In this document: positions 24,225-61,879 of the stretch, piece after piece
Layout of the letters: each line of letters opens with the position of its first letter
How positions within the stretch are numbered: the stretch's first letter is position 1
From: Octopus vulgaris
Taxonomy: Eukaryota
Assembly (NCBI GenBank): GCA_951406725.2
Contig: OX597841.1
Coordinates: 13,454,001 to 13,518,000 of the forward strand
Length of the DNA stretch: 64,000 nucleotides
Reading direction: 5' to 3'
Position numbers and translations under genes: made by a program
The notes under the pieces: generated by a model
Database searches by the model: none
The model's input: the letters and a program-made list of their open reading frames with translations, nothing else
What the model was told of the DNA's origin: nothing

Positions 24225-27200
24225 TTATTTATATTAGTGTGTGTGTGAAGAATGCCCCCCCCACCACCACCACCACTTTATTTCGGTGTATCTGTGGTTG
24301 GTAGAGGTCTGCATGCCGTCTGTCTGTCTGTCTGTCTGGCTTTCTCTGAATAAGAACGAGCGAGAGGTATCGTCTTTCTTCTTCTTACATTCATTCAGAT
24401 GCTTGGAAAGACCCTCCCACCCCAGCCCATCCCTTCTCCTTCACTGCCATTTCTGTTAGTATTTCAGTAGTAGTAGTAGTAGTAGTAGTAGTAGGCCCTT
24501 TCAAGATTCCATTCCATTCCTCTTCGTAATCTTCTTTTCCTCAATCTGCGAAATGGAACTGACAAAAAAGGGCCATTTGTAGTCACTCGTTCTGCTAGAA
24601 ATAGTAGCCAAGACTCCCTCATTATCCAACTGTTTAATTATTTCAATTCTTCGTTTGCATATAATTATAATTACCGTTTGCCATTGTCATCGTTTTCCTT
24701 CTTCATCTTCTTGTTCTTGTTGCTGTTTTCCAGGAACACAAAACTCAGAATGGTTTATTGGATGTTGAAGCCAAAGTGAAATATACGCAATGCTGCCGAA
24801 ATCTCAAGACGTATGGAATCACATTCTTCTTAGTCAAGGTGAGTCTCTTCGTCTCAGATCCACAATTTCTCAATATAAACCCCATTTTGAGGGAATTGGT
24901 AAATAGATCGGTGCTAACATGGCTGTGCGGTAAGACACTTGCTTCACGTCCACGGGGTTTTAAGTTCAGTGCCACTGCATGGCACATTGGGCAAGTGTCT
25001 TCTAATATAGCTTTAGGTCGACTAAAGCCTTATGACTGGATTTGGTAGATGGAAACTGAAAGAAGCCCATCATGACATCATAATTTAATATCTGTTTTCC
25101 ATGCTGGCATGGGTTGGACGATTTGACATGAGCTGCCCAGGCTCTATGTCTGTTGTAGCATGGTTTCTGCAGCTGGATGCCCTTCCTAACATGCCAACCA
25201 CTTTATAGAATGTGTTGGGTGCTTTTACAGAGCACTGGCAGATTTGCTTTTTACGTGGCACCAGCACCCATGAGCCTGGGGGTGAGGGTCTTTCTGTTCA
25301 ACTGAAATTCTTGAAATGATGCCCCAGTCTAATGGTCACAATCTAATGACTAAAACAAGGCAAAGTCGAAAGATCAAAATCAAAAAATTAAATCCACAAT
25401 AATTAGTCTCAGCTCGTTAAATTCTCCCAAATTTATTACTTGTAGTAAACATAATTAGCTCAAACAACCAAGAGCAACATGTTTAGAATAAAAGCAAAAC
25501 AGCATAAATTCCATGTTTAGTTTGGTTTTTGTTCAACAGCTGTTTCATCCAGATAAACATCATTAACTCCACAATTACATAATTAAGATGCATATTGAGT
25601 TTATATAATAATTTATTAATGAATTAAATTTATTTATGTTAGTAGCATTAAGTGTTTATTGTTAACATTAGTAGTCTGTTAAATATTAATTATTAATGTG
25701 ATTAAAAATTAATATCTTATTCTTTGTTTTTGTTTTTTTCAGGAAAAAATGAAAGGAAAAAATAAACTGGTTCCTCGATTACTTGGAATCACCAAAGAAA
25801 GTGTTGTCAGAATGGATGAAAAAACTAAAGAAGTACATATTCTTCTTCTTCCTATTATTGGTTTGGTTTCAGGCAACAAGCTGGCAGAATCCTTAGCATG
25901 CCTGGCATGTCTTTACATTCTGAGTTAAAATTCTGTCGGGGTTGACTTTGCCTTTCATTCTGTCAGTCAGTGAAATAAGTACCAGTGGAATACTAGGGGT
26001 CAATGTAATCGACTATCCCCCTCCCTGCCCTGTCCCTTGATTTCAGACCTTGTGCCTTTAGCAGAAAGGATTATTGTTGACTTGGCTTAGGTATTTCGTC
26101 TGCCGTTATGTTCTGAGTTCAAATTCCGCCGAGGTCGACTTTGCCTTTCATCCTTTCGAGGTCGATTAAATAAGTACCAGTTATGCTCTGGGGTTGATAT
26201 AATCCTTGTGAATGAATTTGGTAGACAGAAACTGAAATTGGTGTTAGGAAGGGCATCCAGCTGTAGAAACACTGCCAGATCAGACTGGAGCCTGGTGCAG
26301 CCTCCTGGCTTCCCAGATCCCTGGTCGAACCGCCCAACCCATGCTAGCATGGAAAGCAGACGCTAAACGATGATGGTGATGAAACTGAAATATGCCTGTC
26401 AGGTGCAGGAATGGCTGTGTGGTAAGAAGCTTGCTTCCTAACCACATGGTTCTGGGTTCAGTCCCTCTGCGTGGCATCTTGGGAAAGTGTCTTCTACTAT
26501 AGCCTCTGGTCGACCAAAGCCATGTGTGTGGATTTGGTAGACGGAAACTGAAAGAAGCCCGTTGTGTGTGTGTTATTCTCTTGTCTTGACAGAAGTTTTA
26601 AACAAGCGTCTTTGTCCTTTGTTCTGTGAAAACATGTGCAGTCACCCGCAGATGGTATCACCTTGCTTGGAAATAGGTAGGACATTTGCTGCAACAAATT
26701 CCGTCTGACCCATGCAAGCATAGAAAAGTGGACCTTAAAACAATGACGTCAATGATACGTAAAGCAGTGAAAGAAAAAAAAAAATATAATTTAATGTGCA
26801 GTGTTTCAAGGGACGTAATTCTGTCAATCATCTCCCTTCCTTTTCTAATTTCTTTGCTCTCATAGACGTCCACGGGTTCGGCCCAGCCCCTTTTATCCAC
26901 CTTTGATGTGCTTGCTTGCTTGGCTTTAAATAGATGAGAGACGAGTAAATCTCTTTTTTCTTTTCCTATGACCATCCATACTGAGAGTTTCTAAGAAGCT
27001 CTCCTTTTCTTTCAAAGAATCTGCTCAGAACTTGCAGACCAACATTTGGTAGCTTTTGGAAGGAAGCTCTTTCAATGTCTTGGAGATGACAGCTAATCCA
27101 GGCATTTCTTTTTTCTTTGCAAGGTTTTACTCCCAAATTGTGAAACACTGGGGTTCAGAGAAACTGACTAGTTCCCCTCCAGCCCCCCAAGTTTCGGGCC

Positions 27201-28124
27201 TTGTTCCTTCAGTAGAAAGGATTATTATTATTATTATTCTATGTTTGACTTTTGCTTTATGTTTGTACAAGTTGGCTCCAAGTCTCACCCAGAGACCTCA
27301 AGAGACAACAGGTTGGAAATCCGTGATGTTGTTATGCCTAGGGTGCCATATATTTGGTTTTGTACTTAGTGTTGTACTAGTGAATGTCTAAAAAAAAACA
27401 TACGAAAATTATGTTTGTTTTAAAACTTGAGATTACATAGAAAGTATTTTGCGTAGGATATGAGCAGTTCCCATGAGCGCTCCCTTTTGAATTTCTGCCA
27501 TTTTGGGGTTTCCTGGTCTCTGAGTTAGGTAGCAATCAGCCCCTTTTGCTATTATTATTATTCTATGTTTGACTTTTGCTTTACATTTGCACAAGTTGGC
27601 TCCAAGTCTCACCCAGAGACCTCAAGAGACAACAAGTTGGACGTTCGTGTTGGTGTTATGCCTAGGGTGCCATATATTTGGTTTTGTACTTAGTGTTGTA
27701 CTAGTGAATGTCTAAAAAAAACATACGAAAATTATGTTTGTTTTAAAACTTGAGATTACATAGAAAGTATTTTGCGTAGGATATGAGCAGTTCCCATGAG
27801 CGCTCCCTTTTGAATTTCTGCCATTTTGGGGTTTCCTGGTATCTGAGCTAGGTAGCAATCAGCCCCTTTTGCTATCATTCCCAGGGCACCGATGACAACA
27901 GGTATTGTTTTAGTCTTCAGGTTCCACATTTTGCTGATTTCTATTTCAAGATCTTTATATTTGCTCATATTATATATATGCATATAATCTTTATATTATT
28001 ATCATTATTATTATATGGTTGACCTTTGCTTTGTATTTGTACAAGTTGGCTCCAAGTCATTTTGGGGTTTCCTGGTCTCTGAGTTAGGTAGCAATCAGCC
28101 CTTTTTGCTATCATTATTATTTGC

Positions 28125-28190
<66 letters not shown>

Positions 28191-29010
28191 ATGAATGGTT
28201 ATTTCCCTGAATGAAACATTGAACCTGTATTTCTTTCCCACAGATTATCATGACGTGGCCCCTCACAGCACTAAAGCGATGGGCACCATCCCCGAATAGT
28301 TTTACCCTGGTAAGTCTTTTTCTTTGATTTTTTTTGTGTGTCTTATTTGTGCCTCACTTCATATTTGCCCCTGGATGGGGCACCAGTCCACCATAATGAT
28401 GTTTCATTAACATATTTTGTCTTTTTTTCTTTTTTCTTTTTTCCTCCTGCTGGCCCCTTTCCCTTGCAGGATTTAGGGGACTATTCTAATGAATATTACT
28501 CAGTTCAAACGACGGAGGGGGAGCAAATTTCACAACTCATTTCTGGATATATTGATATTATCATGAGAAAGGTAAGTTTTGTTTTTCCTTTCATCATCAT
28601 CATCATCATCATCACCATCACCACCATCATTATCATCATCAATATTGTCATCACCACCATCATCATCATCACTGGACGAAATACTCAGCAGTATTTTCAA
28701 ACTCCACCCATCTAACACCCGTGGACATGTTTACAAAGTCAGAAAACAGCACAGCTCCTTCCGCGACTTTCGGAAACATTTTTCCACGCTAAGAGTTGCT
28801 GAAGCATGGAACAAACTGCCGGCATCAGTTGTTAGTTGTCGGAGCACTGCATCCTTCAAAACTTACCTGACTTTCTCCCCTCCATATACACACGCAAGCA
28901 TGTATCTGACTCATACACTGTTCACTTCCCAGACATTTGTACATTACTGCATATACTTTATACACACTTTGGACAAGTTGTGGTGCACCTGAGCACTGTA
29001 TACAATAATT

Positions 29011-50400: not shown

Positions 50401-53400
50401 TTTCTCTCGCTCTCTCTCTCCTTTCTCTTGCTCTCACTTTCTCTCTCTTTCCCTCCTGTCTCTCTCTCTCCCTCCTGTCTCCCATTTTTCTCTCCCTTTC
50501 TTGTCTCCCTCTCCTTGTCTCTCTCTCTTTCCTATCACTCTCTCTCATGTCTCGTCCTCTCTCCTGTCTCTTCCTCTCTCCTGTCTCTTCCTCTCTCCTG
50601 TCTCTTCCTCTCTCCTTTCTCTTCCTCTCTCCTTTCTCTTCATCTCTCCTTTCTCTTCATCTCTCCTTTATCTTCCTCTCTCTCCTTTATCTTCCTCTCT
50701 CCCGTCTCTTCCTCTCTCCCGTCTCTTCCTCTCTCCCGTCTCTTCCTCTCTCCTGTCTCTTCCTCTCTCCTGTCTCTTCCTCTCTCCTGTCTCTTCCTCT
50801 CTCCTTTATCTTCCTCTCTCCCGTCTCTTCCTCTCTCCTTTCTCTCCCCCTCTCCTGTCTCTCCCTCTCGCTTATCTCTCTCTTGTCTCTCTCTCTCTCT
50901 AAACATCTGTCTGTTTGTCATTGCAGGTAGCCAAAAGTGTGTCCAACGCCTTAAACAATTGCCTGAACTGTTTGCCTGGTCAAAGAGATGTTGATAATGC
51001 CATCCGAGGCATCACAGAGTCCAGCCAGGCTCTTTCAACCTCACAGGTCAGTTGTCTACACCACCACCACCATCTTCTTTTTTTTCAACTAATAGTTGCT
51101 TTTATTAGATGCGTCTTACAAGGTTTTTACCGGTCATAACTTTCATTGACCTAACATACGATATCTAAGGGTTTCTCAACCAGATTTTATCTATGGGGTC
51201 CCTTTGGTTACAGTTTTATTCTGGTGGACCCTAAAGCCATTCGATGACTAAAAACCAGTCACATTAACTTGAGTAGGTTGAACTCTGTAAAATGTTAAAG
51301 AAAGAAACCCAGCTGTTTCTTGCCATACATACCAATACATACATCTAAAACAGGGATCCTCAACCCTTTCTTATCCATGGAACCCTTTGATTTCTATTTC
51401 AATCTGGTGGACCCCCTAACTGGTTTTATAGATTCTTCCTTTAAAATTCCTGTTTTGCCCTTCACACATTAACCCCTGTAGGTTGAACTATGCAAAACAT
51501 GGTTCTCAACCATTTTTTTTATCAACGGACCCTTTGATTATTATTTTTTCCTGGTGGACCCCCAAAACCATATGATGTTTAAAAACTAGTTTTATAGAAA
51601 CTTCTTTCAAAATCCCTATTTCGTTTTTCCCAGATTTGTGTTGGAGAAAGAAACCCAGCTGTTTCTTGCAATACATACCAATACATCTAAAACAGGGGTC
51701 CTCAACCCTTTCTTATCCATGGAACCCTTTAATTACTATTTTAATCTGGTGGACCATAATACCCATTTGATGTTTAAAAACCAGTTTTTGAGAAACTTCT
51801 TTCAAAATTCCTAATTGTGTTACTGTTTCCCATCCCTCTAACCATCTACGTTTTGTCCGTTCTTCTTCAGATCCCAGAGACCAACAGATCATACCAGGAG
51901 GCCCAGGGCGAAATGAACCAAGCGGCCGTGAATTTGAACCAAGCAGCCAGCGACATAGTGACCACGTCGCGCGGCACTCCACAGCAGCTTGCCTCCTCGT
52001 CCAACCGTTATGGACACGCCTACAAGGACTTTGTGGACAGCGGTCTAGTTATGGCTGGCGTCACGAAGGACAGTGACACCCAAATGCAGATAATCGGAGG
52101 ACTGAAAAGTGTGTCCACAGTGTCCAGCAAGTTACTTGTCGTGGCTAAGTCTGTGTCAGCAGACCCCAACGCGCCAAACGCGAAGAACCTACTTGCACAA
52201 GCTGCCAGGGCAGTAACTGACAGCATTAACCAACTCATAAACATTTGTACCGTATCAGCACCAGGACAAAAGGAATGCGATAATGCTTTGCGGCAAATCC
52301 AGATGATGCGTAGCCTGCTCGAAGTTCCCAACGAACCAGTCAGCGACCACTCGTACTACGAGTGTCTGGAGTCAGTCATGCAGATATCAAGGGTTTATAT
52401 ACTTTATTTATATACATATTTATGTTATATATATAAAAATGTCATCCATGTATATATATACCATGTATCCTTGAGTATAATCCACATTATTTCCCCAAAA
52501 TTTTAAGGTCAAAATCCCTAGTACGTATTATACACGAGGTTAAAAATGAAAATTATTTTCTCAGCAATGTCTGAGTCGCTATTTGCTGTCTGGCAATGTT
52601 TATTCAGACGCATTTTGTGATGTTGGGTGCGAAAATACCTTCAGCTAAGCCTGAAAGCAATGAATTCATAAAAGAATCATCCATAACTTGCAGTAAGCAA
52701 CATTTATTAAAATAAAAGTACTCAGAACACAGAATAACATGTAACAAAAACAATTTGCAAACATATTTACATTCCCATATAACAGTTAAGAACATCACCA
52801 TTATTGTATTACGCATGCACGGAAGTGTTTGTTTGACTAGGTGCTGCTGGCTTAATTACACATGACTCAAGTTAGAGAAGGGGTGCATATTATACACAAG
52901 GTTTAGGTTTTTCAGAAGTACAGCCCCCTAAAAATCCCCTGCGTATTATACTCAAGGGTGGACTGTACTCGAGGATTTATGGTATATATATATATATATA
53001 TATTGTGTGTCTGTCTGTTTGTCCTGTCTCTGTATGTACATATTGTCTTGTGTATATCATCGTCCGCTCATCATCAGCTTACTCTCCTCTGATCGGCTAT
53101 TTGCTCCAGCTGGTCGGCTTTATCTGCTTTGGCTATTTCTTACAATCTATGCTTTGTCTTTAATCTCTCTTGCTAATCTCTCTTTCACTAATCCCTTTCC
53201 TTTTCACTCACTAATCTCTCTTCCTCTCGCTCTCTTGCTAATCTCTCTCTCTCTCTCTTGCTAATCTCTCTCTCTTGCTAATCTCTCTCTCTTGCTAATC
53301 TCTCTCTCTTGCTAATCTCTCACTCTTGCTAATCTCTCTCTCTTGCTAATCTCTCTCTCTTGCTAATCTCTCTCTCTTGCTAATCTCTCTCTCTTGCTAA

Positions 53401-54624
53401 TCTCTCTCTCTCGCTAATCTCTCTCTCTCTCGCTAATCTCTCTCTCTCTCGCTAATCTCTCTCTCTCTCACTAATCTCTCTCTCTCTCTCTCACTAATCT
53501 CTCTCTCTCTCACTAATCTCTCTCTCTCTCTCTTGCACTAATCTCTTTCTTTCTTGCTCAGTCTCCCAAATTCTCCCTCTTTCTCTCTTGCTAATCTCTC
53601 CTCCTCTCTTTCCTGCTAATATATATCTGTGTCCTTAATCACTCTCTTCCTAATCCCACTTGCTAATCTTTCTCACTAATCTCTCTATCTTCACTAAAAA
53701 CACTTGGCTTTTGTGGTTGACAGCAGTGAGGGGCCTGTTTTGTACCAACTTCAGCTGGTTGATAGTGAGAGCCATGTCCGGAATGTAAGAAGATTCTTAT
53801 TGTTTCCATTACCTTTAAAGGTTTTCATTTTAAGCTTAAGAATTTGGACAGTTTTTCCCTTTGTTAACATTTTTTCCAGCTGGAACGCCATTTTTTCATC
53901 CTAAGTCTACTGGATCAGGGATTACCTGGGGTTAAACAAAAATATTCATCATATAATGTAGTCCTAGATATACTGTGCCTGAATAAAAAAACGCAATGAT
54001 CATGGCTGGAACACCCTTGATTATATAGGTCAGTTGTATCAGTACTGACCCGGGGTTTAACAACAGCAGCAAAGGACACATTAGATAAAGTAGTCCTAGA
54101 TATACTATGCCTGAATAAAGACGGGATGGCCACAGCTGGAACACTTTTGATCGTCATAGGTCTACTGTATCAAATACGACCCAGGGCTAAATAACCACCG
54201 TGACCACCATCCCGACAACCACACTTTCCTAACAGTTAAAAGCTAACCGTCCGCCGCGCTAAATTTCAATCCTGCTTCCTGCCTACTATCTTGAACTTTA
54301 ACCTTTGACCCTAAACTCTAACCTTTGACCCTGACCTCCAACCCTTAACCTCGAAGCTTTACCTGCTGTGTTCGCGCTCTCATTATTTCTCTTCTGTTTC
54401 CCTGTACAGACTGTCTCCACTAAGGAACTCCAGGTAAGTCCCTGTAAGGTGATCACTAATTCTACATACATATATCTACATATGTATGTATATATATTTA
54501 CGTATGTAAATGCACTTGTGTGTATAGGAATGGGTTTTTCTTTTTTTTTCTCATTTTCAACATTATCGATTTTGTTTCTTTTATCTAAATTATCTGTACT
54601 GGTTTGTTTATTATTTTTTTTAAT

Positions 54625-54697
<73 letters not shown>

Positions 54698-55035
54698 TAT
54701 TAGTTGCATGTCAAGTGATTGTGTATTCTTTACTATTTTGTCCTCTTCATATCTTTTCCACTCATCCTTTCATGGTGTGTATATATATATATATGTATAT
54801 ATATATATAATCAAAATAAGCAACAAGGATATCCAAGGTATTGTAGTACAATTGTTTCATGCTGCTTCATTTTATTAAACACTGATGTAGCATGAAACGA
54901 TTGTACTACCCTACCTTGGATATCCTTGTTTCTTATTTTGATTATAATCACCCCATTTGATTTATATGGATAATACCATACCAAATTCTGGTGCCTTTAA
55001 CTTAAGTACCATATTCATCTGAATCTAAGTTTTTG

Positions 55036-55073
<38 letters not shown>

Positions 55074-55296
55074 GTGTGTGTGTGTAGGTTTTTTTATATT
55101 TGAACGGAAGCTAAGAATTTGTCTTGTTTTATACCACTCTGAGCATCAGGGGTTTCACCTGATGAGCTCTTGTGTGAAACTCACTTTGCAAGATGCTCCC
55201 AACTTCAGTTTCAATAAAGGACTCTATTTTCTGCAACATGTATTGAGAACTTCTCACTCATTTGTTTGACATGAAGCAATGCAGGTATATATATAC

Positions 55297-55333
<37 letters not shown>

Positions 55334-58300
55334 TAAATATTGGGTGCACAGCTCCACATTGATGGATAATTAACCTTTATTTGTGTATTAAGGCTATCAG
55401 TGGTTTCATGTTAAGGAAATATCTTAGCAATCCTCAAGCTGGTCACATTGAAAAATTGGTGTTTGTCTCCATTTTGGATTAAAATGCAGATGGACACCAA
55501 TTTTTCTGTGATTGGCTTGAAGAATTGTTAATGTATTTTCTTAACATGAAACCAATGGTAGCCTTAATGCACAATATATATTTATATATATATATCTATA
55601 TATATTATGTATGTTCTTTTTTGAAATACCTTGAAGCACCTCACAAAGCTGTAAATAATAGCATGTAAGTATTGGATTTAGGATTTCTTCTGGATAGAAA
55701 CTCAAAGACTGCTTGTTGAGGGTGAACCCATTTCCTCTGTGGATATGAGAGATGTTCTACCATTGGACCAAAACACTCCTTCGAATTTCTCTTGCCATTT
55801 TAGGAAATTAATTCTTACCAGCAAGAATTGTATATTGACATCATAAAAATTTTATAAATTTTTGGGAGAATATGAAATGGCTCCTTTTTTTAAATTTTTT
55901 GGGAGCACCTTCAAGAACATAGATAGAGGAGACACAGATTTGAGTCCCGTGGGCAGCTTTTGACACTTTCTATCCAAAAGGGATTTTCAACCCAGTATAT
56001 TTGTTATTTAGGGTATTCCAAAAAGGAAATTGTTCTAGTTCTCTCATGAGTTTATAAAATTCATATAATGTCAACTATATATATATATATATGCATATAT
56101 AGACAGGGTTAAGCTCCATGATGTGTCCTCATGAAGTACATCTGTATATTCTAGTCTTTTTGTAGGTGTTATATTTTACATGAGGCAGACATGTTTGTTG
56201 ATAATAGGGGAACACTTCTTGCAGAGTCATTATGTATCAAAACAGAAGACTGTAAACATTTGTATTTTATTTCCCCATTACACACGTTTCATTACCTAAT
56301 AGGAGTTATATGTCTTAAATGTTTTTCTACATGTACACCTATGTAACTCCTATTAGGTTACGAAACATATGTAACGGGGAGTGGCACGTAAAAATACCAT
56401 CCGTTCGTGGCCGTTTGCCAGCTCTGTCTGGCACCTGTGCAGGTGGCACGTAAAAAGCACCCACTACACTCACGGAGTGGTTGGCATTAGGAAGGGCATC
56501 CAGCCGTAGAAACACTGCCAAATCTGACTGGCCTGGTGCAGCCTTCTGGCTTCCCAGACCCCAGTTGAACCATCCAACCCATGCTAGCATGGAAAACGGA
56601 CGCTAAATGATGATGATGATGATTTTTCAATCTGTTGTTTTGATATGTGTGTGTGTGTTTCGTATTTGTTATGCAAAATTCTTGAAGTAGAATAAATTTT
56701 TGCCAATAAAAGACCCTGTTTAGATTGTATTTCACATTTTAATATCATCATAGATTCAGGTAGCACGGTGCTTTAGCAGAATCACTCAAGCATCAGTCAA
56801 AATCCATTGTTATTTGTCTCAGTTCTCTACATTCTGCATTGAAATCCCACCAATGTCAGCTTTGCCTTTCAACCTTTAAGGGCCCAGTATGTTACGTGCA
56901 AAGGATTTGCAGGTGTGAGTGCTACCAGCTGAAAGCTCTGCATACCAGACGCTATCAAGTTTATGAGGTTACCAATAAAGAATACCTTTCACGTTCTGGG
57001 GCCCATGAAATATAGTACCTGTTTATTAATGAAAGGGTCAATAGTATCGACATATCCTTCTCTGTTTGAAATTATTGATCTTGTACCTCAATTAGTGACA
57101 CTTGTTAGTTCTCTAATTAACCTCACTAATTAACATTAGCTTAATAATGAGTTATTTTACTAATTTCTCTATTTTCAAACTTAACTGAAATAAAAACAGT
57201 GGATTTCTACAGAAGTATAGTAATATAAGAGTAAACAAGTAATACTAAAATGAAGTGAAATCCAACCAGTGCATGTATTTTATTGGCAAAATTACCCACC
57301 CAGGGTCCAACATATATATTCTTTCTTATAGTTTTAGTCTTACTCTTTTCTGTTTCTTTCTAAATATTTTTTTCTTTTCACAAAAAATATCTCTTGGATT
57401 TTTAAATTTTTTTTTGCTCTCCATCTTGATGTGTAAATGTTTTACTCTATCTGATTTCTGTGATGTGTTAATACTGATTTCTAACCATCAACTTTGCTCA
57501 CAAGGCCTCAATTCTGAGGGGCAGGGGTATATTCAATTATATCGAAACTCTGTATGCGATCGGATATGTCTTTTATTTTATCTGCTTTCTGCCCCTGAAG
57601 GGTAACGGGTGAAGCAGACTCTGGTAAGATTTGAACTTACAATGCAAATGTTTCAAACAGGAGTGGCTGTGTGGTAAGTAGCTTACTTACCAACCACATG
57701 GTTCCAGGTTCAGTCCCACTGCAAAGCACCTTGGGCTAGTGTCTATTATAGTTTCAAGTCAATCAAAGCCTTGCGAGTGGATTTGGTAGATGGAAACTGA
57801 AGGAAGCCTGTCATTTATATAGTTGTGTATTTGCCTCCCCCCCCTCTTCTGCCATCGCTTGACAACCAATGTTGGTGTATTTATGTCTCCGTAACTTAGT
57901 GGTTCGGCAAAAAGAGACTGATAGAACAAGTACTAGGTTTACAAAGAACAAGTCCTGGGGTCGATTTGTTTGGCTAAAAGGTGTTGCTCCAGCATGGCCA
58001 CAGACAAAGGAATAAAAAAAATAAATGACTGAATACTGTGAGGCATTTTGTCTGTATGCAAAACGGTTAAGACGCATTGCGTAAGACGTGTCCCTCTGGT
58101 CTGCTCCCTCTTTAATGCCTTGTCATAACTAACCAGAGTTTTTCCAAAGAGAGTGCAAATCCTAGCAAGAGCCAACACTGCCTTTTATCCTTCAGGGACC
58201 GCTATGATGAAGTATACCCCTCCCCTCAAAATGTGGAGGCCTTGCATCTAAATTAGATTCCACGCTTATTTCACGAGAATTTGCTGGGCATATTTGTTTT

Positions 58301-59162
58301 ACTGTTTACTTTTCTGGGATGTTCTTCTCTCTCCGTTCTTTGGTTCTGTGATTCTTCAAATCTATGATTCTTTCATTCTATGATTTTGCTCGTTCCCTGA
58401 TTCTTTCATTCTGTAATTTCTTTCCCCCCCCCCCCCAAAAAAAAAAGCAAAGCATGAAACAGTTAGTGTGTGTTTGTGATTACCCTGGTCTAGTGATCAT
58501 GTGATGGTTGTGATCATAAAACAGCCAAAATGTAGGGAAATCAAGATGGAGATTTTCAAATCTAATATAAACAGCATGCATTTGTATACATTTTGACTTT
58601 TGGATCACTCTCTCTCTCTCTCTCCATATATATATATATATATATATATATTACACACACACACTCATACTCGTACACACACATGAAGGTGCTGAAAGGT
58701 TCCTGGTTTTAAGGGTATCACAAATGGCCTGGTTGGAGGCCCAAGTTCTTGGGTTCTTTTACAGGGCTTAGAAAAACTGAAGGACCACTGCAATAAGTGT
58801 GTGAATCTGAGAAGGGAATATGTTGAATAGAATCATAATTAACTGACCTCCTGTTTTTTTCTTTTACCCAAAGCCAGGAACCTTTCACCAACCCCTTTTA
58901 TGTATGTGTATGTGTATTCTTTACTATATTCCCTTATTCCTCGTCTCATCTCTGTTTCTCTCTCTCGCATCCAATCTGCAGTCTCTTGGCGATGCCATGA
59001 CAGGAATATCAAACGATGCCAAGAAAGCTGACACGGATGGGTTCTGCGAGGCCGTCAGAAACTTCTCCTCATCCATTAATGGCCTGACTGAAGCAGCTGC
59101 TCAGGTAAGAAAGAAGTCTTAGGATTCGCTTCATTTATTCGTAACCATGATTATATGCATAC

Positions 59163-59247
<85 letters not shown>

Positions 59248-59765
59248 CATACACACATACATATATACGTAACAAAGACCATCTGATCGTGGCCGTTGCC
59301 AGTCTCGCCTGGCCTCCGTGCCGGTGGCACGTAAAAAGCACCATCCAAGCGTGGACGTTCACCAGCCTCGTCTGGCACCTGTGTCGGTGGCACATGAAAA
59401 GCACTCTCTATGGTTGGCGTTAGGAAGGGCATCCAGCTGTAGAAACCTTGCCAGATCTGACTGGCCTGGTGCAGCCTTCTGGCTTCCCAGACCCCAGTTG
59501 AACCGTCCAACCCATGCCAGCATGGAAAGCGGACGCTAAATGATGATGATGATGAATACCAAGTTAACTTTTGAGAGTTAAAGCTACATAATTATTGTCT
59601 TTCTGTTTTTCTTCTCTCTAGTCTGCCTATTTGGTTGGTATCGCTGACCCGGCCTCTGAGCCTGGACACGCTGGTCTTGTTGACCAATCCCAGTTCGCTC
59701 GGGCGAACCAAGCGATCCAGACAGCGTGTCAAAACCTCACTTATCCAGCAAGATCCCACTCAGAG
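11965..59765 (+). CDS. TLN1: Talin (invertebrate TLN1/TLN2 orthologue), partial spliced CDS of 30 exons covering FERM F1-F3, linker and rod R1 to the start of R8; gene continues beyond both window ends
   Basis: Manual splicing gives an uninterrupted frame with talin hallmarks: [114 protein letters not shown]. All introns are GT-AG with matching phases. Confidence 0.97.
12658..12800 (+). CDS. TLN1: Talin exon, F1/F2 ([14 protein letters not shown]...QLLYVQ)
   Basis: ttttcag|TA AAT ... CAG|gtaggt; 143 nt. Confidence 0.95.
13334..13741 (-). mobile_element. SINE family A, near full length
   Basis: Reverse complement of family A. Confidence 0.9.
13879..14006 (+). CDS. TLN1: Talin exon, F2 ([12 protein letters not shown]...KHKPGFL)
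   Basis: tttcag|TGT ... TTA GA|gtgagt; 128 nt. Confidence 0.95.
14344..14577. repeat. 78-nt tandem repeat, 3 copies
   Basis: tatcatcacctggtacaatcc starts at 14344, 14422 and 14500. Confidence 0.9.
15354..15535. repeat. Fold-back inverted repeat (~84-bp arms, 14-nt loop)
   Basis: 15354-15437 is the near reverse complement of 15452-15535. Confidence 0.9.
15927..15990 (+). CDS. TLN1: Talin exon, F2 basic membrane patch ([22 protein letters not shown])
   Basis: caccag|A CTT ... CAG|gtgagt; 64 nt. Confidence 0.95.
16660..17022 (+). mobile_element. SINE family B with internal tandem units
   Basis: Repeated ggtggcacgtaaaaagcacc units followed by the family B core and (ATG)n tail. Confidence 0.85.
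21431..21833 (+). mobile_element. SINE family A
   Basis: Match to family A. Confidence 0.9.
22185..22625. repeat. Degenerate (CA)n satellite
   Basis: Direct reading. Confidence 0.9.
22899..23280 (+). mobile_element. SINE family A
   Basis: Match to family A. Confidence 0.9.
23480..24245. repeat. Compound (TA/CA/TATG)n satellite
   Basis: Direct reading. Confidence 0.85.
24734..24838 (+). CDS. TLN1: Talin exon, F2/F3 (EHKTQNG...[11 protein letters not shown])
   Basis: ttccag|GAA ... AAG|gtgagt; 105 nt. Confidence 0.95.
25743..25832 (+). CDS. TLN1: Talin exon, F3 ([30 protein letters not shown])
   Basis: tttcag|GAA ... GAA|gtacat (weak donor); 90 nt. Confidence 0.93.
27221..28190 (-). mobile_element. 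Tandem 3' fragments of an RLE-type (R4/Dong-like) non-LTR retrotransposon in (TAA)n
   Basis: ORF 27756-27983 [15 protein letters not shown]...PVVIGALG...[15 protein letters not shown] fits the restriction-like endonuclease C-terminus; the 3' end is repeated 2-3 times between (ATT)n runs. Confidence 0.8.
28244..28309 (+). CDS. TLN1: Talin exon, F3 integrin-binding pocket ([22 protein letters not shown])
   Basis: cccacag|ATT ... CTG|gtaagt; 66 nt; KRW equivalent to R358/W359. Confidence 0.95.
28470..28571 (+). CDS. TLN1: Talin exon, end of F3 ([19 protein letters not shown]...IIMRK)
   Basis: ttgcag|GAT ... AAG|gtaagt; 102 nt. Confidence 0.95.
28680..29070 (+). mobile_element. CR1/L2-clade LINE 3' fragment with (ATT)n tail
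   Basis: NTRGHVYK...[18 protein letters not shown]...SFK, typical of the CR1-group ORF2 C-terminus. Confidence 0.8.
29784..29860 (+). CDS. TLN1: Talin exon, head-rod linker ([25 protein letters not shown])
   Basis: ttacag|AAA ... CA|gtaagt; 77 nt. Confidence 0.93.
29892..30197 (-). mobile_element. Non-autonomous Helitron
   Basis: Minus strand 5' TC, subterminal hairpin cccgagcaacgccggg, degenerate CTAG end, A|T target; homologous to 43764-44463. Confidence 0.8.
30570..31030. mobile_element. Unclassified ~450-nt dispersed repeat (second copy ~62354-62805)
   Basis: Collinear copies catgccatcaaagtgacactggggtac ... gcaaatctgtggtattgagcagaatattt. Confidence 0.75.
31258..31651 (+). mobile_element. 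SINE family A, full length
   Basis: Match to family A. Confidence 0.9.
31749..31929 (+). CDS. TLN1: Talin exon, linker ([27 protein letters not shown]...APVQ)
   Basis: cctcag|A GCC ... CAG|gtgagc; 181 nt; phase fits both neighbours; [10 protein letters not shown] resembles vertebrate GSVALPAIMR. Confidence 0.9.
32011..33375 (+). mobile_element. Decayed mariner (Tc1/mariner) transposon interrupted by SINE B
   Basis: Transposase remnants [49 protein letters not shown]; degenerate TIR ggtctgatcaaaaagtatc. Confidence 0.8.
33431..33571 (+). CDS. TLN1: Talin exon, R1 ([17 protein letters not shown]...LPELGSDA)
   Basis: atttcag|AGT ... GCG|gtaagt; 141 nt; a second in-frame CAG lies 6 nt downstream. 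Confidence 0.92.
33623..34188. mobile_element. TTAA MITE interrupted by SINE A (~33763-34103)
   Basis: ttaaccctttagt ... actaaagggttaa; nearly identical to the intact copy at 39294-39520. Confidence 0.85.
34579..34760 (+). mobile_element. Helentron/HINE-like non-autonomous element fragment
   Basis: attacctcc...aaggaggttatgttttc, gtccgtctgtctg microsatellite, aaattttggtagtgatccgg; architecture typical of HINE/DINE-like elements. Confidence 0.55.
34893..35050 (+). CDS. TLN1: Talin exon, R1 ([11 protein letters not shown]...LGAAIHT)
   Basis: ctccag|GCT ... AT|gtgagt; 158 nt. Confidence 0.94.
36060..36210 (+). CDS. TLN1: Talin exon, R1 ([18 protein letters not shown]...AAQPGTRG)
   Basis: ttttcag|T TCT ... 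GGG|gtaagc; 151 nt. Confidence 0.94.
36344..36445 (+). CDS. TLN1: Talin exon, end of R1 ([16 protein letters not shown]...DHSFQ)
   Basis: tttcag|CCG ... CAA|gtaagt; 102 nt. Confidence 0.94.
37034..37201 (+). CDS. TLN1: Talin exon, R2 ([22 protein letters not shown]...QLVACAK)
   Basis: atgcag|GAC ... AAG|gtaaca; 168 nt. Confidence 0.95.
37220..37590. repeat. (CT)n/polypyrimidine tract
   Basis: Direct reading. Confidence 0.9.
38137..38238 (+). CDS. TLN1: Talin exon, R2 ([15 protein letters not shown]...VEAAM)
   Basis: tttcag|GTT ... ATG|gtaaga; 102 nt. Confidence 0.95.
38413..39534. repeat. ~270-bp direct duplication (38413-38682; 39030-39534) flanking a truncated SINE B (38683-39029)
   Basis: atgagaatattttctatgtagtgggaat ... 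tttgctt present twice. Confidence 0.9.
39294..39520. mobile_element. Intact TTAA (piggyBac-like) MITE
   Basis: TIRs with duplicated TTAA; the paralogous empty site has a single TTAA (gcacttaaaga, ~38665). Confidence 0.9.
39788..39901 (+). CDS. TLN1: Talin exon, end of R2 ([31 protein letters not shown]...GE)
   Basis: ttccag|TTT ... GAG|gtcagt; 114 nt. Confidence 0.93.
39905..40265. repeat. (ACT/ACC)n trinucleotide tract
   Basis: Direct reading. Confidence 0.9.
40455..41005. repeat. Degenerate minisatellite (units like gggtcccttcctgcagatccctctagct)
   Basis: Recurrent motif, poorly conserved. Confidence 0.7.
41059..41169 (+). CDS. TLN1: Talin exon, R3 ([19 protein letters not shown]...KMLAQ)
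   Basis: ttccag|GGT ... CAG|gtaacg; 111 nt. Confidence 0.95.
41230..41915 (-). mobile_element. SINE family B carrying a 67-nt internal minisatellite (about 6 copies)
   Basis: cacgttcggatggtgctttttatgtgccaccggcac at 41513, 41580, 41647, 41714, 41781 and 41848. Confidence 0.9.
42094..42225 (+). CDS. TLN1: Talin exon, R3 ([10 protein letters not shown]...[13 protein letters not shown])
   Basis: tttcag|GCA ... AAA|gtaagc; 132 nt. Confidence 0.95.
42541..42935 (-). mobile_element. SINE family A, full length
   Basis: Reverse complement of family A. Confidence 0.9.
43058..43186 (+). CDS. TLN1: Talin exon, R3/R4 ([12 protein letters not shown]...[11 protein letters not shown])
   Basis: cttcag|GGA ... 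GAA|gtaaat; 129 nt. Confidence 0.95.
43210..43660. repeat. Degenerate ~20-nt minisatellite (tgttagcccagtgtac-like)
   Basis: Recurrent gttagccca/gttaacc motifs. Confidence 0.75.
43764..44463 (-). mobile_element. Head-to-tail tandem of two non-autonomous Helitrons (43764-44066, 44067-44463)
   Basis: Minus strand A|TC...hairpin-CTAG|TC...hairpin-CTAG|T; no TSD. Confidence 0.88.
44532..44645 (+). CDS. TLN1: Talin exon, R4 ([17 protein letters not shown]...HFECK)
   Basis: tcccag|AAC ... AAG|gtaacg; 114 nt. Confidence 0.94.
45284..45397 (+). CDS. TLN1: Talin exon, R4 ([14 protein letters not shown]...[10 protein letters not shown])
   Basis: ttccag|GCT ... CAG|gtaaca; 114 nt. Confidence 0.94.
46432..46828 (-). 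mobile_element. SINE family A
   Basis: Reverse complement of family A. Confidence 0.9.
47094..47228 (+). CDS. TLN1: Talin exon, end of R4 (PCAKLIDAS...[11 protein letters not shown])
   Basis: caacag|CCC ... AAG|gtgagt; 135 nt. Confidence 0.94.
47275..47790. repeat. (TG/TA)n satellite
   Basis: Direct reading. Confidence 0.9.
47895..48023 (+). CDS. TLN1: Talin exon, R5 ([16 protein letters not shown]...LVPLPGET)
   Basis: ccctag|GCC ... ACG|gtaagt; 129 nt. Confidence 0.94.
48059..48453 (-). mobile_element. SINE family A
   Basis: Reverse complement of family A, starting about 35 nt after the exon donor. Confidence 0.9.
49599..49682 (+). CDS. TLN1: Talin exon, R5 ([28 protein letters not shown])
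   Basis: cttcag|GCG ... CAG|gtaaga; 84 nt. Confidence 0.94.
50156..50383 (+). CDS. TLN1: Talin exon, R5 ([17 protein letters not shown]...QQRLAQ)
   Basis: gaacag|GGT ... CAA|gtaaca; 228 nt. Confidence 0.95.
50398..50900. repeat. Polypyrimidine minisatellite (~17-nt cctctctcctgtctctt)
   Basis: Fills almost the entire intron 50384-50926. Confidence 0.9.
50927..51046 (+). CDS. TLN1: Talin exon, R5/R6 ([27 protein letters not shown]...STSQ)
   Basis: ttgcag|GTA ... CAG|gtcagt; 120 nt. Confidence 0.95.
51871..52392 (+). CDS. TLN1: Talin exon, R6-R7 ([12 protein letters not shown]...[12 protein letters not shown]...[10 protein letters not shown])
   Basis: cttcag|ATC ... AGG|gtttat (weak donor); 522 nt; its end aligns with vertebrate CLDSVMENSK. 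Confidence 0.93.
52459..52984. mobile_element. Tc2/pogo-like MITE, TA-flanked
   Basis: TIRs taccatgtatccttgagtataatccac / gtggactgtactcgaggatttatggta. Confidence 0.75.
53160..53697. repeat. ((CT)n-GCTAAT/ACTAAT) minisatellite
   Basis: More than 20 CTAAT motifs separated by (CT)n. Confidence 0.9.
53755..53784 (+). CDS. Weak candidate 30-nt in-frame talin microexon ([10 protein letters not shown]), R7
   Basis: gttttgtaccaacttcag|CTG...AAT|gtaaga; phase 0-0, no stop; immediately downstream of the CTAAT array. Prediction only. Confidence 0.3.
54410..54433 (+). CDS. Candidate 24-nt in-frame talin microexon (TVSTKELQ), R7
   Basis: ttatttctcttctgtttccctgtacag|ACT GTC TCC ACT AAG GAA CTC CAG|gtaagt; consensus donor, strong pyrimidine tract, branch-like CTAAC/CTGAC upstream, phase 0-0, unique sequence. 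Confidence 0.6.
54806..54946. repeat. Fold-back inverted repeat (~64-bp arms, 13-nt loop)
   Basis: 54806-54869 pairs with 54883-54946. Confidence 0.88.
55381..55574. repeat. Fold-back inverted repeat (~95-bp arms, 5-nt loop)
   Basis: 55381-55475 pairs imperfectly with 55481-55574. Confidence 0.85.
57659..58020 (+). mobile_element. SINE family A, older copy
   Basis: Diverged match to family A. Confidence 0.8.
58683..58900 (+). mobile_element. Mariner-derived MITE
   Basis: TIRs as at 5213-5839; retains the transposase C-terminal remnant [18 protein letters not shown]. Confidence 0.8.
58982..59104 (+). CDS. TLN1: Talin exon, R7 ([15 protein letters not shown]...GLTEAAAQ)
   Basis: ctgcag|TCT ... 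CAG|gtaaga; 123 nt. Confidence 0.95.
59622..59765 (+). CDS. TLN1: Talin exon, R7/R8 ([15 protein letters not shown]...[16 protein letters not shown]...SHSE)
   Basis: ctctag|TCT ... GAG|gtaaga; 144 nt. Confidence 0.95.
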
Positions 59766-60099
59766 GTAAGACTCGTCTTTAACAATTTCCTGCATAATTA
59801 ATTCATTAATCCATTAAATAAATATTTAATTAAACTGGAATAATATTAATATTGGCAATACAAGAGTGTCTAATGTTTTTTTTTTTTGCTTTCCGTTTTT
59901 TTTTTGTTTTATTTGCTGAGGGGTTAGAAGCGTGTGTGTTGGGGGGCGGGGGTTGATGTTTTCGTTGTTGTGGTTGTTTTTGTTGTTTTATATATTTGTG
60001 TTGTTTTCGTTGTTGGCTCTGAAGCTTTGTTGCAGTTCCAATTCCATTACACGGCCATTCTTCCAGCCTTTGGGTAGGTGCAAAAATACACGTGCACAT

Positions 60100-60405
60100 T
60101 TGGTTTAGTGGTTAGGGTGTTGCACTCGCGATTGCGAGATCGAGGGTTCGATTCCCAGACCAGGCATTGCGTTGTGTTCCTGAGCAAAGCACTTCATTTC
60201 ATTTTGCTCTGCGATCATTTTGACACCTGACATGTGGCACCCAGTTGCACCTGTACAGGTAATGTCAATCTGATGGAAGGAATGAGCTTATGTCTACACA
60301 AACGTTTGATCACTAAAAACAAATCATTTGTGTGGTTGTTTGGTGAGAAATTGTCGGACCCTCAAACATCGTCTAACGACGGGCTAGTCCATTATTATTA
60401 TTATT
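60100..60405 (+). mobile_element. tRNA-derived SINE (related copy ~8385-8610, minus strand)
   Basis: tggtttagtggttagggtg...gggttcgattccc head followed by a body shared with the 8385-8610 copy and an (ATT)n tail. Confidence 0.75.
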
Positions 60406-61239
60406 TTATATATATATATATATATATAATATGAAGTGTGTGTGTATATATGATCATGTGTGTCAATCTCCATTTGCATATGTGTGCTTGTCTGTTCTTA
60501 TAACCTATGTACCTATCCGTCTCTGTGTTGATCAACATACAGACGGATAGGTATATACATTATATGAACAGACAAGCACACATACGCAAATGGAGTCTGA
60601 CACACATGATCATATATACACACACACACTTTACTCCACACAAGGACACATATGGAGACACGGATCCACACATATAGAGATGCACATCCATACGTACAAA
60701 CACGGTACATAGTTGCATAACACACACACACACACATACTCAGACATGCACACACAAGGAGACAGAGGTGCATATATACACACATACATAAAGAACACAA
60801 ATATGGACATGCAAGCACATGAATATACAGGATACACACATACAGATGCACATACATATAGATACATATGCTTACACACACACACTTACATACATGCATG
60901 CATAGGCACACACACACTGACCCACACTTATGCACACAAACAAACAAAAAGGAACACAGTGTAAATAACAGACAGTCAAGACTATTGAAAAGGTTGCAAG
61001 ACACAACGAAAATTTTAGGAAAATAAAAATAAGAAATAAGGGGAAATTTTACCGGTGAGTGTGTTAAATAATGTTGGATGCCCTTGCTACCACCAACTGC
61101 CACCTGTTTCCAAGCCAGGTAATATTCCCCTCAATTCCTTCAGCCCTAAACAGCTGAATGCCTGGACATGTTTACGCAGAAGACTGCAAACAAACAGCAC
61201 CACTTGAATATCGTTTACGCTTGTTTACAAGACAAGGAT

Positions 61240-61273
<34 letters not shown>

Positions 61274-61849
61274 CAAACTATGCCAAGCTTGCAGCCAGCT
61301 ATGCTAAAGTGCTGCTTGCAGTGGTTCTAATCCAGCCACCCCCATTTCTCTTGTAATGTATATATTTGTGGAATAAGTCATTGTATATGTATACCATGTG
61401 TGTATATGTATACATATGTGTATATATGTCTATATGGCTATATTTATGTTACATTTGTACATTATGTAAAGTTATGCATATGTGTACATGTATATCTAGT
61501 TATGTGTCGATAAATAAATATGTATGTATATGTATATACATATATTTCTATGTATATGTGTTTGTATATATATGTATACATATGTGTGTCTATGTATGTG
61601 TATAATTGTGCCTATATCTCTGTATGTGTAGTAATATATGTGTGTTTGTATATATATGTATACATATGTGTGTCTATGTATTTGTATAATTGTGCCTATA
61701 TCTCTGTATGTGTAGTAATATATGTGTGTGTGTATATATATAACCTGTACGTCAATGTCAGTCAACCGGTTTCGTCCTGTTCCGTTCCCTGTCATCTTAA
61801 TCCTCGCAGTCTCTAACTTCTAATTAAACTTCTTAATTCTTCTCTTAAG

Positions 61850-61879
61850 TATTACGCTTCCTGGAACAGCCGTGCCATG
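61850..61879 (+). CDS. Candidate 30-nt in-frame talin microexon (YYASWNSRAM), R8
   Basis: ctctaac...ttcttaattcttctcttaag|TAT TAC GCT TCC TGG AAC AGC CGT GCC ATG|gtaaga; phase 0-0, no stop. Confidence 0.6.

Follow-up and report, generated by a model that had tools for sequence, protein, structure and literature searches.

Optional microexons at the R7 and R8 ligand surfaces of talin in Octopus vulgaris and their counterparts across molluscs

Introduction

In work on vertebrates, the R7R8 region of talin is regarded as a fixed hub that force and phosphorylation tune, and a single cassette exon is known in the talin rod. This is exon 17b of human TLN1, an optional, in-frame exon that alters the behaviour of its helical bundles (PMC9997659). 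In Ciona, a single invertebrate talin gene is diversified into talin-a and talin-b through splicing and without duplication (PMC1702346). On a broader scale, neural and muscle microexon programmes are described across bilaterians, in which short exons with lengths that are multiples of three fall on the interaction surfaces of cytoskeletal adaptors and are gained recurrently at one site (bioRxiv 10.64898/2026.09.05.749416). The exons studied here resemble these in length, in keeping the reading frame, in their place at interaction surfaces and in recurrent gain at one site. The locus is the talin gene of Octopus vulgaris, of which we analyzed a stretch of 64,000 nucleotides (G000:C28:13454001-13518000, hereafter the window; G000 is the genome assembly and C28 the contig). 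A previous sequence-only reading of the window had proposed that two or three tiny exons act as a switch on R7R8, where the KANK and LD-motif ligands bind.

Results

The identification of the gene and its domains as talin R7-R8 was upheld by sequence and fold alike: the sequence matched talin-1 with an E value of 6e-68, the top 13 matches of a fold search were all talin R7R8 or full-length talin, and the deposited isoform P0231 matched the window and its flanks exactly in every exon (Table 1). We scored all 2,804 frame-preserving, stop-free segments of 9-51 nt bounded by AG and GT in the 46 introns of the gene (105,393 bases), using matrices trained on its own 46 donors and 45 acceptors and 3,306 antisense candidates as controls. 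The 24-nt segment obtained the highest score of all, 29.2, while the best antisense control reached 16.4; the 30-nt segment ranked 24th and nine of the controls scored as high. The candidates at ranks 4 and 5 are in the long R8 intron beyond the window and have no isoform support, and the next-best lookalikes of the 30-nt peptide within the locus were discarded, as they have no AG/GT boundaries and lie inside a recurring repeat. Because the 30-nt segment and the first segment, at 53755-53784, are each matched by controls, the 24-nt exon is the only one that splice scoring establishes by itself.

The deposited octopus proteins support the 30-nt segment as well. There are nine named isoforms, CAI9742941-CAI9742949 (P0145 and P0228-P0235), and the tenth member of the cluster is an assembled transcript, P0236. 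The peptides TVSTKELQ (24 nt) and YYASWNSRAM (30 nt) occur together in two of the nine, isoforms with each alone are also deposited, and P0236 is without any of the three segments. Both segments have lengths that are multiples of 3, canonical AG/GT boundaries and no stop codon, as expected of microexons, and the 30-nt exon exceeds the strict cut-off of 27 nt that some authors use. The 24-nt and 30-nt segments are, then, genuine optional exons that are already in public gene models.

Two of the two or three tiny exons of the sequence-only reading therefore stand, and the first segment is not confirmed. All three are, as had been claimed, in phase 0-0, stop-free and bounded by AG and GT, but only the 24-nt exon outscores every antisense control. 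The peptide of the first segment was found in none of the 563 proteins fetched and in none of the nine named octopus isoforms, and the segment is probably a chance match. Its reading as a homologue of the GHL inserts of limpet and abalone was rejected, given that 129 of 1,742 candidates score as well.

All three segments could still be regulated exons if the CTAAT array in the first intron served the first of them as a branch-point or STAR-protein platform. The array, correctly noticed from the sequence, has a period of ~17 nt and ends ~75 nt upstream of 53755; it includes seven ACTAAT and resembles a repeated branch point and pyrimidine tract without AG. Two of its three-unit patterns match only here in the 2.8 Gb of the assembly. 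In mammals, QKI represses exons through ACUAA branch sites (PMC13004596). The array could bind SF1 or a QKI-like protein, or could be a neutral minisatellite. The chance-level score of the first segment and the lack of any isoform or orthologue argue against a third regulated exon, and a unique minisatellite is unremarkable in a repeat-rich intron. We judge this explanation improbable, more so than either of the two functional alternatives considered below for the inserts as a switch or as purely mechanical elements. The only AG within the array, at 53562/53563, has a branch-point-like motif and a pyrimidine tract upstream of it. Used as an acceptor it would soon meet an in-frame stop, and for this reason it could be a decoy or poison acceptor.

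Next, we compared the insert positions with the ligand-binding residues. Octopus R7R8 aligns to vertebrate numbering without gaps. It keeps Y1389, S1400, G1404, S1411, L1492, R1523, K1530, K1544 and S1641, with W1630 present as Y and R1638/R1652 as K, and a gene with a KN motif is present in the genome. The exon upstream of the R7 site ends at the residue equivalent to vertebrate K1401, and the 24-nt insert enters R7 helix 2 between the equivalents of K1401 and V1402, separating S1400/K1401 from G1404/S1411. These four residues make up the KANK pocket on helix 2, and the substitution G1404L abolishes KANK binding (PMC4995097). KANK L43 lies beside G1404, and most of the hydrogen bonds are on the other helix (PMC10281804). 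The 30-nt insert enters at the start of R8 helix 2, before V1491 and two residues ahead of L1492, which together with K1544 belongs to the R8 LD box (PMC4938799). If this insert were helical, its conserved Arg, Trp and first Tyr would fall at i-4, i-7 and i-11 from L1492, on one face of the helix. Congruently with what had been proposed, optional microexons hit the ligand surfaces of R7 and of R8, and do so in more than one combination: both or either alone in the isoforms, neither in P0236, and a skipped R7 site in all four of the sequencing runs described below.

AlphaFold models were built from alignments of 66 rows, most of them gapped at the inserts, which biases the inserts towards loops. 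Without inserts, R7 helix 2 is predicted to be continuous (residues 33-59) and R8 helix 2 to have 28 residues. With both inserts, a low-confidence loop divides R7 helix 2 into the segments 33-44 and 54-67, and R8 helix 2 extends to 33 residues and begins inside the 30-nt insert.

A more drastic effect of the R7 insert would be an on/off switch, in which it shifts the register of the helix, puts a bulky residue in place of the invariant small S1400 and thereby fills the KANK pocket, uncoupling adhesions from microtubule capture as a natural counterpart of G1404L. Of 257 distinct insert-free sequences, 255 have Ser four positions before G1404. In the 13 insert-bearing sequences the residue there is L (8), V (3), M (1) or N (1), and it is hydrophobic in five of the six insert types; these types are, however, few and partly related. 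Moreover, in the best AlphaFold model the insert is looped out and the two halves of the helix are both retained. Docking of the octopus KN peptide to R7R8 with both inserts, a run with no insert-free comparator, still scored 0.38 (best control, 0.02), which counts as weak support; the runs agreed in at least 60% of contacts, with a partner pLDDT of at least 53. The mark for support was calibrated on pairs other than peptides; 51 of the 78 solved pairs and 2 of the 108 mismatched ones reached it, and values of 0.60 or less were given by only 5 of the 78 solved pairs and by all 4 of the mismatches that passed. The pass may reflect prior exposure of the model to a like complex that has been solved (8IVZ). 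Taken as modelled, the docking weighs mildly against a total off-switch, and we regard such a switch as unlikely.

To place the inserts in a wider context we fetched 563 proteins, of which 538 were scorable, 527 readable at the R8 site and 535 at the R7 site; counts of isoforms are not independent observations. Some insert is present at the R8 site in 137 proteins, and in 74 of the 527 it is a 10-aa insert of the type Y-[YN]-x5-R-[SA]-[ML]. The latter come from 16 species of four mollusc classes, namely octopus, the chiton Liolophura, nine gastropods and five bivalves (names as in the source), and isoforms with and without the insert coexist in many of them. Up to three cassettes are stacked at this site in gastropods, with up to 27 aa in Pomacea. 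No arthropod, vertebrate, Lingula or Lineus row among the readable proteins has the 10-aa insert, and amphioxus has an unrelated 10-aa insert at the R8 site that may be an alternative donor. A 5-aa insert at the same site of Owenia fusiformis (P0509), DFRAL, resembles the C-terminal five residues of the 10-aa exon found in the chiton and might push the origin of the R8 exon back to the annelid-mollusc ancestor.

At the R7 site we found an insert in 38 of the 535 proteins: 4 of octopus, 9 of limpet, 8 of abalone, 1 of Gigantopelta, 11 of oysters, 4 of scallop and 1 that is a truncation artefact. The limpet and abalone inserts share GHL. The position of the 24-nt exon thus recurs in other molluscs and its sequence does not; some of the inserts of other molluscs, read from proteins only, could be alternative acceptors. 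On these comparisons, the optional R7R8 insert system is molluscan and not, as had been supposed, a cephalopod trait, since the 10-aa R8 exon is also in a chiton, gastropods and bivalves.

The same comparisons bear on two further explanations. The inserts could act only mechanically, by lowering the stability of the bundles or exposing vinculin sites, in the manner of exon 17b in the R1R2 region of human talin-1 (PMC9997659), with little direct effect on KN or LD binding. Apart from that precedent, the predicted break in R7 helix 2, the role of R7 stability in shielding R8 from force (PMC4995097) and the variable, unrelated sequences of the R7 inserts, which suggest that length outweighs sequence, are consistent with it. 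That the 30-nt exon is conserved residue by residue in four mollusc classes points instead to a specific contact, and we consider a purely mechanical role slightly less probable than the on/off switch. Alternatively, the 30-nt exon could supply another partner with a new motif to bind or a phospho-site (Tyr-Tyr, Ser, Arg-Ser), close to the LD box only on account of an old intron site; the 24-nt exon would then be a young event of low level that is tolerated. The introns at both sites are old and in phase 0, and many unrelated inserts arise there, as the R8 counts illustrate; the 24-nt exon is seen in one species only. Its splice signals are nevertheless near-perfect, and the mid-helix R7 site is reused in five other mollusc lineages; this is the explanation to which we give least credence.

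We then examined the splicing of the R7 site in transcripts. Contigs from all four runs examined (four studies; 4 of the 19 runs with matching contigs, a single contig each) leave the genome at 52392 and continue with the exon at 58982. None of the listed runs is recorded as RNA, but the contigs are spliced and so represent transcripts. The donor at 52393, rightly called weak from the sequence, is in use, and skipping is the main form in these runs.

The SRRM3/4-eMIC model of neural microexons has a UGC motif just upstream of the acceptor. No TGC was found at positions -25 to -4 of any of the three segments, and ACTAAY is absent from the 150 nt that precede each of the 24-nt and 30-nt exons. 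YTAAY occurs three and four times upstream of these two exons, compared with a mean of 1.07 (maximum 5) for 45 constitutive acceptors, and no stable RNA structure was detected around the 24-nt exon (z +1.36). A stronger-looking AG lies at 61809/61810, 40 nt upstream of the weak acceptor of the 30-nt exon, with several YTAAY in between.

Table 1. Exons, splice sites and repeats around the R7 and R8 insertion sites (positions in the window unless indicated).
Feature	Position	Strand	Evidence or remark
Constitutive exon, R6 and first half of R7	51871..52392	+	aligns to human talin-1 1229-1400; exact match to P0231 aa 1237-1410; covered by contigs of 4/4 runs
Weak 5' splice site, in use	52393..52399	+	lowest-scoring of 46 donors (training set included it)
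Minisatellite, ~17-nt units, 25 CTAAT, each then a CT tract	53173..53680	+	AG-free for ~450 nt (53110 to 53559)
Candidate microexon 1, 10-aa peptide	53755..53784	+	unsupported: rank 36/2,804; 17/3,306 antisense controls as good
Tandem satellite copy, ~250-bp unit	53877..54198	+	frequent on C28 and C30; at least 144 matches when 40 of 1,091 candidates were scored
Alternative microexon 2, 24 nt, TVSTKELQ	54410..54433	+	4/9 named isoforms; splice rank 1/2,804; skipped in 4/4 runs
Palindromic dispersed repeat, 64-nt arms	54806..54946	.	at least 80 matches, on many contigs, when 40 of 1,527 candidates were scored
Second palindromic dispersed repeat, 54-nt arms	55381..55574	.	at least 84 matches when 40 of 1,232 candidates were scored
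Constitutive exon, remainder of R7 helix 2 (G1404, S1411 equivalents) and helix 3	58982..59104	+	isoform mapping, transcript contigs
Constitutive exon, R7-R8 linker and R8 helix 1	59622..59765	+	isoform mapping
Alternative microexon 3, 30 nt, YYASWNSRAM	61850..61879	+	7/9 named isoforms; absent from 2 and from P0236; conserved across Mollusca
Next R8 exon, beyond the window	G000:C28:13530661 (window-equivalent 76661)		isoform mapping

The long hairpins that had been pointed out in the first intron are real, but the two that were tested are high-copy dispersed palindromes of a mobile-repeat-like kind, not specific to this gene, and we rejected them as regulators. Another palindrome, in the R8 intron at 60436-60627, has 96-nt arms, no loop and 91% complementarity.

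The octopus genome likely has a single full talin gene, in searches whose paralogue counts are lower bounds: the exon at 51871-52392 has a single DNA match in the assembly, and I/LWEQ is present at the talin gene and at one other locus at 41%. We presume the latter to be HIP1-like. A lone 99-aa stretch on the minus strand of contig C1 (L035:4888-5184) is 43% identical to talin R6 and has no Pfam hit; other talin exons were not found within 10 kb of it.

Finally, some further variation was observed along the gene. A diverged second copy of the FERM exon adjoining 28470 lies at 28241-28309 and 27172-27366 of the window, with QVGSKS-like stretches repeated nearby; it reaches 70% to the snail protein, versus 94% for the preceding exon. 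The deposited isoforms P0234, P0228 and P0233 either end after ~aa 2145 with a new C-terminus or start at aa 146, and isoforms of ~2,150 aa are listed for many other molluscs too. A third alternative hotspot is located near talin aa 2316, before the R13/actin-binding region, where octopus isoforms have optional segments of 8 and 17 aa (window-equivalent 123883-123906 and 138870-138920 of G000:C28; L007-L009). Of ten isoforms of other molluscs that were compared, eight carry an insert at the corresponding position, and in several of them it includes an EIRWSY-like motif.

Discussion

Our results favor the view that the two optional, frame-preserving microexons tune, and do not abolish, the binding of partners to the R7R8 hub and its mechanical stability, which we consider reasonably likely. 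The 24-nt insert is predicted to break up R7 helix 2 by a flexible loop that lies at the edge of the KANK groove, and would thereby weaken or reshape KANK docking and R7 stability. The 30-nt insert is predicted to lengthen R8 helix 2 by ~5 residues beside L1492/K1544, where its conserved Tyr, Trp and Arg would alter affinity or selectivity for acidic LD motifs. Inclusion would be restricted to some tissues or stages.

Several observations weigh against this proposal. Model confidence is lowest in the inserts, with pLDDT below 50 at residues 47-49 and 65 for residues 141-150, and the KN docking reached weak support with both inserts in place. No relation was detected between the sequence of the octopus 24-nt insert and those of the other R7 inserts, and none of the other cephalopod records read (Argonauta P0186; P0165, P0333, P0335, P0236) has it; no short cephalopod fragment with an insert was among the best 120 of 361 matches listed. 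The Mytilus, Mizuhopecten and Sinanodonta isoforms read have no insert at either site. Furthermore, no inclusion junction at the R7 site was seen in the four runs, so that inclusion rests on gene models; assembled contigs drop rare variants, and an absent inclusion contig does not exclude inclusion.

A bolder version, which we hold to be possible but doubtful, is that molluscs have a splice code on R7R8 older than 500 million years. The conserved R8 microexon would lengthen the LD-binding helix by a Tyr/Trp/Arg stripe and so change the signalling partners bound, its stackable neighbours would multiply the variants, and the repeatedly gained R7 insert would gate the coupling of KANK to microtubules in a tissue-specific manner; the R8 exon may even reach the annelid-mollusc ancestor, if Owenia DFRAL is related to it. 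Inserts that occur naturally at the KANK pocket and the LD box, and that molluscs have kept, would serve as ready-made probes for the retuning of the hub, and would show how a lineage with a single talin diversifies adhesion in muscle or nerve.

The exons themselves are already represented exactly in the deposited O. vulgaris talin isoforms (CAI9742941-CAI9742949), which like the RefSeq mollusc isoforms are automatic annotation only, with no function, tissue pattern or cross-species comparison, and from which the first segment is absent. No published description of these talin exons was found by title and abstract, in a search that covered few subscription papers; what seems new is their conservation and position. 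From the bilaterian microexon programmes the octopus exons differ in having no TGC within 25 nt of either acceptor, and the main text of that work does not mention talin (bioRxiv 10.64898/2026.09.05.749416). That a single-talin animal may use splicing instead of paralogues, as the sequence-only reading suggested, agrees with a principle already published for Ciona, where the C-terminal I/LWEQ actin-binding module is swapped and the variation is not in microexons of the central hub (PMC1702346). Finally, exon 17b of TLN1 is a vertebrate exon of 51 nt in R1R2 (PMC9997659), whereas the octopus exons, of 24 and 30 nt, lie at the ligand grooves of R7 and R8 and belong to an old, molluscan system.

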